From positions 514,249 to 578,248 of the forward strand of contig CAVWIJ010000012.1 in NCBI GenBank assembly GCA_963754985.1: 64,000 nt of DNA. The letters run 5' to 3'. This document shows positions 17,137 to 42,775 of the stretch, one piece after another (positions within the stretch are counted from its first letter, which is position 1; each line of letters starts with the position of its first letter). The DNA is from an uncultured Holophagae bacterium. GTDB lineage: Bacteria; Acidobacteriota; Thermoanaerobaculia; Thermoanaerobaculales; Sulfomarinibacteraceae. A program made the position numbers and the translations under genes. Under the pieces are notes generated by a model. The model made no database searches, was not told the DNA's origin, and worked only from the letters and a program-made list of their open reading frames with translations.

Positions 17137-18770
17137 CCCCGCTCCTGCGGACCCCGGCCATCGTCCACCCCTCGAGGGAGCCGAGGAAGCGCTCCTCCTC
17201 TTCCTTCCAGCGCCGCCACTCCCAGCCCATCTCCGAGCGCAGGATCGGCCGCAGGGGCCGCAGCAGCGCGACCGCCTGCTCGGGATCCCACATCCCCACC
17301 CGCACCCGGCGCAGCAGCAGGTCCTCGAGGTGGAGGACGGCGCCCCAGCGCAGGTGGGCCCGCACCTCGGCCGGGCAGAGGTCGCTGTCCGGCGCGACCG
17401 GCCGCAGCTCGGCGTGCCGGCGGGCGGCGGCTGCTGCGGTCCAGGCCAGGGCGCCGAGCCGCCGGGCCATGCCACGAGCCACGGTCGTGTCGATCTCGAA
17501 GACTCGCGCCAGCCGCTCGGCGAGGTCGGCCGGCGCGAGGCCTGCGAGCGGCGTGCCCTTGGTGGCGCAGGGAGCGGCGTGGAGGGCCCGCTCCTCGGGC
17601 AGCAGCCGGAGGACGGCGTCCACCGCCTCCTCGGCCGTGCTGCGCCAGGTGGTGAGCTTGCCGCCGGCCACCGAGAGCGCGCCGTCCTCGTCCCAGATGG
17701 CCTCCTCGCGGGTCGCCTCCGAGGGATCGTCGGCGTGGGTGTCGAGGATCGGTCGCAGGCCGGCGAAGGTGCCGCGCACGTCAGCCAGGGTCAGGTGCCG
17801 GTCCGGAAACGCGGCGGCCGCGGCGCGCAGCAGGTAGTCAACCTCGGCCGCCGTTGGTCGCGGGTCGTCCAGCGCGCCGTCGTGGTAGTGGTCGGTGGTG
17901 CCGACGAGCACGCCCTCGGGGTGGGGGATCAGGAACACCGGCCGGCCATCGTCGGGCGCGAGCAGGGTCACGGCGACCTCGATCGGGAGCCGCGAGCGGG
18001 CGATGATGAGGTGGATGCCGCGCGATGGCCGGACCCGGCTGCCGGCGAGGCCGAGCCGGCTGCGGAGGACGTCGGTCCAGGCGCCGGTCGCGTTGACCAC
18101 CACCTTCGCCCGGACCCGGTGGGTGCGGCCGTCGGCGAGGTCGTGCAGCAGCACCCCGGCGATCGGCGCCGGCGGGCGCCCGCTGGGCGGCGGTGACCTC
18201 GCAGCGTGTCAGCAGGTGGGCGCCGTAGTGGTGGGCGGTCGCGGCCACCGCCAGGGTGAGCCGCGCGTCGTCGGCCATCGCGTCACTGTAGGCCAGGCCG
18301 CGGTCGAGCTCGCTGACGTCGAGCCCGGGCGCGAGGGCGGCGAGCTCGTCGGCCTCGAGCTGGGCGTGGCGCTCGGGGCGGCCGGTGAGGCGGTCGTACA
18401 TCCAGAGCCCGAAGTCGATCTGCCAACCGGGCGTGCGGTCCCCGCGGTAGGCCGGGTAGAGGAAGCGGATGGGGTACACCAGATGGGGGCTGAGGCTGAG
18501 CATCCGGTCGCGCTCGCGGCACGCGAGGCGAGTGATCCGGAACTGCATCTGCTTGAGGTAGCGCAGCCCGCCGTGGATCAGCTTGGACGAGCGCGAGGAG
18601 GTGCCGGCCCCGACGTCGTCGCGCTCGACGAGCAGCGTCGACAGGCCGCGCTGCGCAGCGTCGAGGGCGATGCCGCTGCCGGTGATGCCGGCGCCGACTA
18701 CCACCAGGTCGAAGGTGTCGTCGAGGGAGGCGAGCGCCATCTGGCGCCACTGCGGGTGGAACACCGTCAC
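17060..18770 (-). CDS. glpD: FAD-dependent glycerol-3-phosphate dehydrogenase with one frame break and a 3' end running into repeat R2
   Basis: N-terminus DLVVVGAGITGSGIALDAAQRGLSTLLVERDD.GAGTSSRSSKLIHGGLRYL (tail of track ORF 17838..19829) is joined to 17060..18154 at about 18170. The candidate GTG start at 18770 overlaps the upstream stop, and an in-frame ATG lies at 18740. Confidence 0.8.
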
Positions 18771-25302: not shown

Positions 25303-25486
25303 CTAGCCCGGGAATCTCACCGGGTTTCGTCGCGAGGGTGGCGAGGTGCCGTGCGCAGTGGGGATTTCGTCCCGAGGGGCGCGGAGGCGTACTTGACAGT
25401 ACGTCGAGCACCGCGAGGCGAGAAAGCACCGCTGAGCGCGGTACATCGTCGGCCGCAGTAGAAAGTTGGTGAGATATCCGGGCTAG
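25303..25486. mobile_element. MITE-like 180-bp element, copy 1, with 19-bp terminal inverted repeats (17/19 match)
   Basis: CTAGCCCGGGAATCTCACC at 25303-25321 faces GGTGAGATATCCGGGCTAG at 25468-25486. The interior is about 92% identical to 32944-33123. There is no ORF of its own. Confidence 0.6.
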
Positions 25487-32795: not shown

Positions 32796-32841
32796 CGGAT
32801 TTGCCGGCGGCGGGCGGACGACCACCTCGGCATGGATTCTG

Positions 32842-32870
32842 CCTCCGGATGCGCGCAGCGCATCCGGAGG
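32842..32870 (+). terminator. Perfect 13-bp stem-loop downstream of fpr, a possible terminator with no T-tract
   Basis: CCTCCGGATGCGC (32842-32854), loop GCA, then GCGCATCCGGAGG (32858-32870). It lies 47 nt after the fpr stop. Confidence 0.4.
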
Positions 32871-32943
32871 AGCGTGTGAGGCAGAGGCCAACCACAACAA
32901 CCACATCAGAAGCGCGCTCAGGGGCCTATGCCCCACACGCTCC

Positions 32944-33123
32944 AGCCCGGATATCTCACCGGGATTCGTAGCGAGGGCGGCGAGGTGCCGTGCGCAGTGG
33001 GGATTTCGACCCGAGGGGCGCGGAGGCGTACTTTATGGTACGTCGAGCACCCCGAGGCGAGAAAGCACCGCTGAGTGCGGTACATCGCCGGCCGCAGTAG
33101 AAAGTTGGTGAGATATCCGGGCG
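32944..33123. mobile_element. MITE-like 180-bp element, copy 2, with perfect 16-bp terminal inverted repeats
   Basis: GCCCGGATATCTCACC at 32945-32960 faces GGTGAGATATCCGGGC at 33107-33122. The element abuts the elbB stop codon (33124-33126). Confidence 0.6.
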
Positions 33124-33783
33124 CTAGGCCATCTCGAGCAGCGCGTCCACTGCCTTCTCGATGCCCGCGGCGGCCTCGGAGATCCGCTCGGCGAGCATGT
33201 AGGCCGGGGTCGAGATCAGCTTGCGCTCGCGATCCACCACGAAGTCGCGGACTGGACAGGCGACGTGGCGGGCGCCCATCGTCTCGAGGGCGCTGGCGGT
33301 CGCCGGGTCGTTGCCGATGGTGAGCTGCGGGCTCTGCTCGCCGAGCAGTTTCGCGATCAGCGCCGGTGCGATGCACTCCGCGGCAATCGGCTTGCCCTGG
33401 GCGTGCACCTCCCGCACCAGCCGCGCGACCTCCGGGTGGACCGTGCAGTCCGGGCCGGCGACCGCGAAGTTGCACAGGTTCTTGGCGGCGCCGAAGCCGC
33501 CGGGAAGGATCAGCGCGTCGAGCTCGCCGGCGCTGACCAGGGCGACGTCACGGATAACGCCGCGCGCGATCCGCGCCGCCTCGACGAGCACGTTCCTGCT
33601 CGCGCCCTCCTCGACCTCGCCGGTGAGGTGGTTGACGACGTGGAGCTGGGAGGTGTCGGGTGCGCACAGGACCATCTCCGCCCCGCGCCGGTCGAGCGCG
33701 AGCATCGTGATCACCGACTCGTGGATCTCGGCGCCGTCGAAGACGCCGCAGCCGGACAGGATCACGCCGACCTTCTTTGCCAT
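33124..33783 (-). CDS. elbB: DJ-1/PfpI-family protein ElbB (isoprenoid biosynthesis glyoxalase-like)
   Basis: The ATG at 33783 is in frame in track ORF 33124..33936. MAKKVGVILSGCGVFDGAEIHESV, LILPGGFGAAKNLC and PIAAECIAP are ElbB hallmarks. Confidence 0.85.
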   Translation of the reverse strand: MAKKVGVILSGCGVFDGAEIHESVITMLALDRRGAEMVLCAPDTSQLHVVNHLTGEVEEGASRNVLVEAARIARGVIRDVALVSAGELDALILPGGFGAAKNLCNFAVAGPDCTVHPEVARLVREVHAQGKPIAAECIAPALIAKLLGEQSPQLTIGNDPATASALETMGARHVACPVRDFVVDRERKLISTPAYMLAERISEAAAGIEKAVDALLEMA

Positions 33784-33938
33784 GGCTCGCCTCCGTGGGT
33801 GACCGTCTCGAGATGGTCCACCCGTCATTCTACCGTCTCCGGCCGACGTGGCACGCGGGTCGACGGCGTCCACTTGCCCGTGGCCGAGGTGGGAGCAATA
33901 CTGATCGTGGAGACAAGGGGCAACCGAGGAGGGCAATC

Positions 33939-41852: not shown

Positions 41853-42513
41853 AGTGTGGGCGGTCACCGCCAAGGACCTGCGGACCGAGTTCCGGACGCG
41901 GGTCGCGCTGAGCTCGGTGGGGCTGTTCGCGCTGACGACGCTGATCGCGGTCGCCTACTCGGTGGGCCCGTTCCGGATCAGCGTCGAGGACCGCCCGTTC
42001 CTGCTCGCGGTGCTGCTGTGGATCGTGGTCTTCTTCGCGGCGCTGGCCGGCCTCGATCGCGGCTTCGTCAAGGAGGAGGAGAGCCACACCGCGCCGCTGC
42101 TCCGGCTGTCGGCGTCGCCGCACGTGGTGTGGGCGGGCAAGCTGGTCTTCAACCTCGTGCTGCTGGCGGCGCTGCTGGCCGCGCTGGTGCCGCTGTACTG
42201 CATCCTGATGGGCTATCGCATCGAGCTCGTGGGCTGGTTCGTGCTGCTGCTCGCCGCCGGCGGCTACACGCTGGCGGTGGAGGCAACGATCGTCGCCGCG
42301 ATCATCGCCCGCGCCCAGGGTCGCGGCGCACTGTTCCCGGTGCTCGCGCTCCCGCTACTGCTGGCGCTGCTGGTGTTCCTGATCGAGGGCACGACCGCCA
42401 CCGCGGAGGGCTCGCTGGAGTCCGTCCGCGCGTCGCTGCGCGCGGTCGCGTCGCTGGGAGGCGCGATGACGGTGGTGTCGGCGATGCTCTTCCCGCTGGT
42501 CTGGAATGACTAG
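41833..42513 (+). CDS. ccmB: Heme exporter membrane protein CcmB
   Basis: It lies in the frame of track ORF 41800..42513. Candidate GTG starts are at 41833 and 41854. It has six TM helices, and KDLRTEFRTR and FPVLALPLLLALLVF are CcmB-like. Confidence 0.7.
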   Translation: MWRWLSEVWAVTAKDLRTEFRTRVALSSVGLFALTTLIAVAYSVGPFRISVEDRPFLLAVLLWIVVFFAALAGLDRGFVKEEESHTAPLLRLSASPHVVWAGKLVFNLVLLAALLAALVPLYCILMGYRIELVGWFVLLLAAGGYTLAVEATIVAAIIARAQGRGALFPVLALPLLLALLVFLIEGTTATAEGSLESVRASLRAVASLGGAMTVVSAMLFPLVWND

Positions 42514-42514
42514 G

Positions 42515-42775
42515 AGCGTGTTGGGCATGGGCCCCTCGGCGTACTCGGGTCGTAGGCCTTGGGGTGTGCTTGAGGCGTCTCGGTCGCTGGCTGGCCTACG
42601 CCCCGCGCGCGCCGAGAACGATGCGCTGCGCGCATCCAGGAGGAGATGGTGCCGCAGTGGCCGTCTGACGACACTTCGGTCAACCACGCCCGCCAAGAAA
42701 GGCCGATGCGGTACGAACTCTGAGTGCGGCACATCGCCGGCCGCAGTAGAAAGTTGGTGAGGTATCCGAGATGGT
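42515..42775. repeat. Divergent relative of the 180-bp element, inserted between ccmB and ccmC
   Basis: 42719-42770 (CTGAGTGCGGCACATCGCCGGCCGCAGTAGAAAGTTGGTGAGGTATCCGAG) matches the right end of copies 1 and 2. The upstream 200 nt is only patchily similar, and no clear left terminal repeat is present. Confidence 0.45.

Follow-up and report, generated by a model that had tools for sequence, protein, structure and literature searches.

Correia elements of Neisseria and the ERIC/IRU elements of enterobacteria are non-coding sequences of 100-190 bp with terminal inverted repeats, and in both cases the whole element can be drawn as one hairpin. They insert at TA-containing targets and are found as tens to hundreds of intergenic copies; Correia and ERIC elements duplicate the TA. 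To our knowledge, no parent insertion sequence has been identified for either of them. The piggyBac transposons use TTAA, a TA-centred palindromic target, and duplicate all 4 bp of it. In the IS1380 family, as described in ISfinder, the ends begin with CC and the direct repeat is 4-5 bp. One member of this family, IS1247, is 1672 bp long with an IR of 16/13 and a 5-bp DR (PMC3281130). IS1380-family transposases act on imperfect, IR-like ends (PMC9330008), and they have been used as the outgroup for piggyBac and treated as its relatives (PMC10813416).

The element examined here lies in a window of 64,000 nucleotides, which is the whole stretch of DNA that was analyzed. The window comes from a MAG of 4.73 Mb in 32 contigs with 70% GC and 72% completeness (G000). 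The original prediction offered two choices for this element: either it is a MITE of the non-autonomous kind, or it is a structured RNA gene present in dispersed copies. The genome census, the ends, the target duplication, the empty sites, the IS1380 termini and the covariation all favored the MITE, and the structured RNA gene received no direct support. In all likelihood, the element is a MITE that is mobilized in trans by an IS1380-family transposase and that duplicates a YTAR target.

Copies of the element in the window, the genome and related genomes

The coordinates of the element and of the features next to it are listed in Table 1. All three loci of the original prediction, two full copies and one right-end fragment, were found in the window, and most of its description of them held. 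The identity of about 92% given for copies 1 and 2 agreed with the comparison of their cores. The third locus, described as the right-hand 50 nt or so of the element between ccmB and ccmC, is a relic with CcmB- and CcmC-type neighbors; its terminus has decayed to CCGAG and it has no CTAG. The internal hairpin was said to be kept with different loop and stem sequences, and both apexes read as described, CGTACT-TGAC-AGTACG in copy 1 and CGTACT-TTAT-GGTACG in copy 2, with the change giving a U·G wobble. The element was also said to lack an ORF; the ORFs listed over it are overlapping chance frames, and no ORF is conserved in the 176-bp core. Only the definition of the ends needed to be changed. 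The outer (CTA)G...C(TAG), which had been counted as part of the element, is the target duplication and lies outside the inverted repeat.

With 24 nt in between, copy 1 precedes the ATG (25511) of a DUF7544 gene, and it lies downstream of an FAD-oxidase/CCG gene at a distance of 248 nt. Its + strand is the G-rich, better-folding strand. The left flank of copy 2 is a decayed CCAG (32942-32945), as one T is missing from the CTCC-TAG end of the neighboring repeat. At the right end of copy 2, CG separates the core from a CTAG that contains the stop codon of a DJ-1/PfpI (elbB-like) gene on the reverse strand (33124-33936), which is the stop codon near which copy 2 had been described as ending.

Table 1. 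Positions of the MITE copies, their flanking target sites and the adjoining repeats in the window.
Feature	Position	Strand	Description or evidence
Left target-site duplication of copy 1 (CTAG)	25303-25306	.	Empty-site comparison and flank statistics in relatives
MITE copy 1, 176-bp core	25307-25482	+	Termini CCCGGGAATCTCACC (25307-25321) and GGTGAGATATCCGGG (25468-25482)
Right target-site duplication of copy 1 (CTAG)	25483-25486	.	Empty-site comparison
Repeat family B copy	32847-32945	+	GGATGCGCGCAGCGCATCC hairpin ... GGAGCGTGTG..GGGGCCTATGCCCCACACGCTCC; adjoins copy 2
MITE copy 2, 176-bp core	32946-33121	+	164/176 (93%) identity to copy 1
CTAG right of copy 2	33124-33127	.	Its CTA, read as TAG on the minus strand, ends the DJ-1/PfpI (elbB-like) gene
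Repeat family C copy	42510-42719	+	End ...GGCCGATGCGGTACGAACTC; adjoins and truncates the MITE relic
MITE relic, right-hand 50 nt (consensus positions ~130-178)	42720-42769	+	Sequence match to the MITE

A BLAST search with copy 1 found 63 MITE loci on 21 contigs of G000, with conserved ends and structure; this number and the fold z-score of -11.4 (see below) put the repeat well beyond chance. These loci comprised 36 short copies (~184 bp), 17 long copies (~250 bp) and 10 partial copies, and the core of the short form measures 176 bp and that of the long form about 243 bp. The short copies had a median identity of 96.7% to their own consensus (range 87.6-99.4%). The family is an imperfect palindrome of ~176 bp with the termini CCCGCATATCTCACC or CCCGCCCTTCTCACC. 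The true 15-nt termini are CCCGG(G/A)(A/T)ATCTCACC on the left and GGTGAGATATCCGGG on the right, and the inverted termini CCCGGATATCTCACC and GGTGAGATATCCGGG are conserved across the 53 full copies. A minor subfamily, made up of e16, e22, e31 and e42, has the same interior and different termini, CCCGGA(T/C)TATTCATGG. The two termini co-vary between the subfamilies.

The long form carries 70 nt of G-rich sequence in place of three bases at the hairpin apex, and this segment was also found in other genera. The module, GGGGCGGGTGGTGGGAGTGCGGGAGGGGGCGGCGGG...GGGCGGGGGGCGG, was always on the same strand in the 17 long copies (for example, G000:C28:315446-315696, L167), and it was seen in G008, G009, G003 and G006 as well. 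With several G runs of three or longer, it is a possible G-quadruplex former.

The MITE consensus matched 22 of the 24 genomes sampled from the same family; identities were 70-99%, and almost all matches covered the full 184 bp. In the sister family, 2 of 16 genomes were matched, weakly. When public genomes were scanned with an exact 24-mer, the named hosts were uncultured Thermoanaerobaculia, Thermoanaerobaculales and Candidatus Sulfomarinibacteraceae or Ca. Sulfomarinibacter MAGs. Exact 24-nt matches to the left end were also seen in MAGs labeled Nitrospiraceae, Nitrospirales, Nanopelagicales and Deltaproteobacteria (L217, L221, L235, L243, L245, L248, L264, L269 and L276). These off-lineage matches could come from mis-binned or mislabeled contigs or from horizontal spread of the MITE.

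The insertion sites were found to be species-specific. The site of copy 1 is empty in three congeners, with the coding flanks aligned on both sides: the sequence is gggCTAGaatcgg in G002 and G006 and gggATAGaatcg in G003, where the tetranucleotide is ATAG. Clear and precise empty junctions were also obtained for e14, e23, e31, e50 and e61. Spanning matches were present for e6, e35 and e40, with poor alignments. For the copies with non-CTAG flanks, the intergenic DNA of the congeners was too diverged at the critical bases for the empty sites to give the length of the duplication.

Hairpin fold and strand asymmetry

The consensus folds as one hairpin over the whole element, with an RNA folding energy of -119.7 kcal/mol (z = -11.4) compared to -91.8 kcal/mol for the reverse strand. 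Folding with DNA parameters gave -61.8 kcal/mol for the + strand and -46.7 kcal/mol for the reverse strand. Covariation was calculated from an alignment of 44 copies from G000 and 15 relatives, in which the 47 consensus pairs were 95.4% paired. The covariation across copies was strong. Compensatory changes, with both sides of the pair altered, were found in 32 of the 47 pairs, compared to 14.3 ± 2.0 in shuffled alignments (none of 500 reached 32) and 11-19 in a control in which the partners were slid. The covariation score was 0.342, compared to at most 0.092 with slid partners. Compensatory changes were seen in the terminal helix and the internal helices alike.

The pairing differs between the two strands. 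G·T was counted in 261 cells of the alignment and A·C on the same strand in 32 (about 8 to 1), and the + strand folded better than its reverse in all 76 copies examined, by a mean of 26 kcal/mol. The same excess was seen among the recent variants within G000, which changed Watson-Crick pairs to G·T at 18 sites and to A·C at 5 sites. Because the compensation spans 176 bp across 18 genera and the G·T excess extends even to the recent variants, the alignment allows the tentative suggestion that the hairpin may be needed in single-stranded form and on one strand, as either a functional transcript or a single-stranded DNA hairpin in propagation. If this were true, the MITE family would be selected as a folded nucleic acid, beyond its two transposase-binding ends. 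The conservation of the hairpin on one strand could reveal whether elements of this kind are under selection as folded RNA or as single-stranded DNA.

Another reading is that the element is both mobile and a functional structured RNA, either a dispersed sRNA gene or a cis-acting stabilizer, terminator or RNase target, and that this function would preserve the hairpin. It would account for the fold energy, the number of compensatory pairs and the RNA-like pairing on one strand, including that of the recent variants. We nevertheless consider it improbable, given several results that stand against it. No Rfam 15 family matched the window at gathering score or the element at E <= 1, and neither a sigma-70-like promoter nor an intrinsic-terminator consensus was found in the element. 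The + strand showed no convincing bias relative to the flanking genes (co-directional in 26/49 and 17/50, the latter for the 3'-side gene and marginal) or to the local GC skew (30/53). The species-specific sites gave no sign of prolonged retention at one place. Also, the asymmetry is the same with DNA energy parameters, and thus it could be accounted for just as well by a single-stranded DNA form.

IS1380-family elements with the same termini

Intact elements with the termini of the MITE and a transposase of their own were found in related genomes, and they belong to the IS1380 family. Sixty relatives were searched with the NF033539 profile, and the matching loci were then scanned for the MITE termini. 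The element L137 (in G073), 1719 bp in length, has the sequence ttagCCCGCATATCTCACA...GGTGAGATATGCGGGctag and a gene for a 486-aa transposase, whose score was 399.5 bits with NF033539, against a cut-off of 180, and 516.8 bits with PF13701. L153 measures 1461 bp and has ctag on both flanks, and L139 is a decayed IS1380-family copy that carries MITE-type termini. The termini of these three elements, CCCGCATATCTCAC(C/A/G), agree with the major terminus of G000 in 14 of 15 positions. L138 and L159 (G016), which are 1661 and 1686 bp long, have the termini CCCGGATTATTCA, identical to those of the minor MITE subfamily.

The similarity between the MITE and these insertion sequences was confined to the terminal 15-22 nt, with no internal homology; BLAST of the MITE copies against nine IS loci aligned the terminal 18-25 nt, flank included. 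Only the ends are common to both, and descent of the MITE by internal deletion of an insertion sequence is unsupported by this comparison. The lack of internal homology weakens the case for descent by deletion, not the case for a shared transposase.

No IS1380 transposase was found in G000 with NF033539, and tblastn gave nothing better than E = 0.006; this absence is to be read against an assembly that is 72% complete and the fact that insertion sequences often fail to assemble. Outside the MITE copies, no MITE terminus was found in G000 even when as many as 4 of 19 nt were allowed to differ, and no contig end of G000 has one. The near-complete genomes of the relatives G012 and G003 are also without an IS1380 transposase by this search, yet they contain MITEs (more than 20 and about six matches, respectively). 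An IS1380 remnant in the congener G005 (L140) has no clean termini. That an IS1380-family transposase acts on the MITE is inferred, as is the origin of the enzyme that would have moved the copies in G000. Within the literature searched, there was no publication on this MITE family, on IS1380-linked MITEs or on MITEs of Thermoanaerobaculia, and the link between the MITE and the IS1380 family appears not to have been reported before.

Target sites and comparison with known systems

The flanks of the copies were compared in G000 and in the relatives. In G000, CTAG was found on both sides of 19 of 48 copies, and the same 4-mer was found on both sides of 20 of 48. The flanking 4-mers differ more often in G000 than in the relatives, mostly at the outer bases. 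By itself, this would be consistent with duplication of just the 2 bp TA as well. An IS630/Tc1-mariner-type MITE would duplicate only the TA within CTAG and would own the adjacent G and C, and it was the CTA-G...C-TAG flanks that first suggested such an element. The inner flanks in G000 are near-invariant (left G in 47/48, right C in 42/48) and the outer ones variable, as this origin would have it, and G000 contains two IS630-family (DDE_3) transposase genes.

The flanks in the relatives gave a different result. Among 59 copies, 42 of the 53 that were flanked by NTAN had the same 4-mer on both sides. There were 18 identical pairs other than CTAG, namely TTAG (10), CTAA (6), TTAA (1) and ATAG (1). 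The outer flank bases were associated from side to side at position 1 (Fisher p = 3e-9) and at position 4 (Fisher p = 7e-6). Since each outer base on one side is associated with its counterpart on the other in the relatives, these flank statistics indicate that the target duplication is 4 bp, that the target is YTAR and that the element proper is CCCG...CGGG. CTAG is the preferred target, followed by TTAG, CTAA and TTAA.

Co-varying outer flanks such as TTAG/TTAG and CTAA/CTAA are impossible under a 2-bp duplication. In addition, the MITE termini were absent from the IS630 copies of G000 and from 28 in the relatives, and were found on IS1380-family elements. The IS630-type MITE is thus disfavored by the DDE_3 ends and by the 4-bp duplication, and we regard it as very unlikely. 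The two IS630 genes of G000 are located at C11:7826-8269 (L032) and C14:131998-132438 (L031), and their ends are unrelated to any small repeat examined. One of them is apparently split over two overlapping frames and resembles frameshift-dependent IS630 members. A non-mobile REP/BIME-type palindrome, spread by a RAYT (IS200-like) enzyme or by recombination, would also be a high-copy, palindromic, intergenic repeat, but it is refuted by the 4-bp target duplications and the precise empty sites and is hardly credible for a 176-bp sequence (compared to 20-40 bp) with defined inverted termini that match DDE-type IS1380 elements and without the GTAG/CGTC tags of REPs.

CTAG is rare in G000, with 986 sites observed and 13,037 expected (8% of expectation), and all four YTAR tetranucleotides (CTAG, TTAG, CTAA and TTAA) are at 6-8% of the expectation from base composition. 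GATC and TCGA are at 3-4 times expectation in the same genome. Roughly a tenth of the CTAG sites in G000 flank MITE-family copies. By a crude GC3-based ORF call, 52 of the 53 full copies are intergenic, and by the same call a stop codon lies within the flanking CTAG at 21 element ends, in about 20 of the 53 copies.

An IS1380-type MITE with a YTAR target suggests the following mechanism. An IS1380-family transposase would bind the 15-nt termini, which start with CCCG, of the non-coding 176-bp core and would move the core in trans. Insertion would take place into a TA-centred 4-bp target (YTAR, with CTAG preferred), and the target would then be duplicated. As CTAG is near-absent from this 70%-GC genome except for intergenic DNA and TAG stops, the MITE would land there, between genes and often exactly on stop codons. 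The duplication would preserve a stop codon that is hit by an insertion, and targeting of the CTAG at stop codons would explain the position of copy 2 at the elbB-like stop. Each insertion would also recreate CTAG at both ends, so that further elements could insert adjacent to the first, small elements would become stacked, and the same CTAG could be hit independently in different species.

Shared CTAG sites were seen with other repeats. An end of repeat family B, ...CACGCTCC-TAG, adjoins 15 of the 53 full MITE copies, with the CTAG shared. This CTCC-TAG end was found 13 times at the left end of the MITE and twice at the right end. Family B consists of the GGATGCGCGCAGCGCATCC hairpin and then GGAGCGTGTGGGCAGAGGCC...GGGGCCTATGCCCACACGCTCC, ending at TA(G), and has at least two internal variants; in G000, its end has at least 56 strict matches and the hairpin motif occurs about 80 times. 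Family C, with the end ...GGCCAATGCGGCACGAACTCC, gave about 85 matches in G000 and dozens of matches in the congener G003 (query 18211-18421). In the relatives, MITE-MITE and IS-MITE junctions with one common CTAG were also seen.

The CTAG at the elbB-like stop is a hot spot. In G000 it is occupied by a family-B repeat and the MITE, in G002 and G006 by a different element of ~85 bp, and in G003 by a family-B repeat alone. The ~85-bp element (L042 in G002, L044 in G006) reads GCCCGCATT(T/C)CTCAGC...GGTGAG(A/G)(C/A)ATGCGGGC followed by TAG. Judging from its related but distinct termini, it is probably another, shorter MITE family that uses a related transposase. The same three congeners (L042, L043 and L044) have an extra gene of ~1.1 kb between the NAD-binding oxidoreductase and elbB-like genes, which looks like a putative secreted SGNH/GDSL-type hydrolase. 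G000 is without this gene and has only repeats at ~32796-33123; the gene was possibly lost from G000 through repeat-mediated deletion.

The MITE explains a large share of the odd intergenic palindromes in the genomes of Thermoanaerobaculia and Sulfomarinibacteraceae, including palindromes on stop codons and repeat families stacked end to end. Such palindromes need not be read as regulatory RNAs. With CTAG this scarce in a high-GC genome, the choice of target steers insertions off coding sequence.

Compared to the Correia and ERIC elements, the MITE is likewise a small, non-coding hairpin with inverted repeats, a TA-containing target and intergenic copies. It differs from them in its 4-bp YTAR duplication, its IS1380-type termini and its host, which belongs to the Acidobacteriota (Thermoanaerobaculia). 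With piggyBac it shares a TA-centred 4-bp target that is duplicated, but piggyBac is eukaryotic and strict for TTAA, where the MITE uses CTAG and then TTAG, CTAA and TTAA, and the precise-excision chemistry of piggyBac is not known from IS1380 elements. The MITE resembles the IS1380 family (IS1247, ISPme1, ISEcp1) in its CCCG...CGGG core and its short target duplication. Of that family, the elements in the relatives, at 1.46-1.72 kb, combine the MITE termini with an NF033539 transposase, whereas the MITE has no transposase and has only 15-22 nt in common with them.
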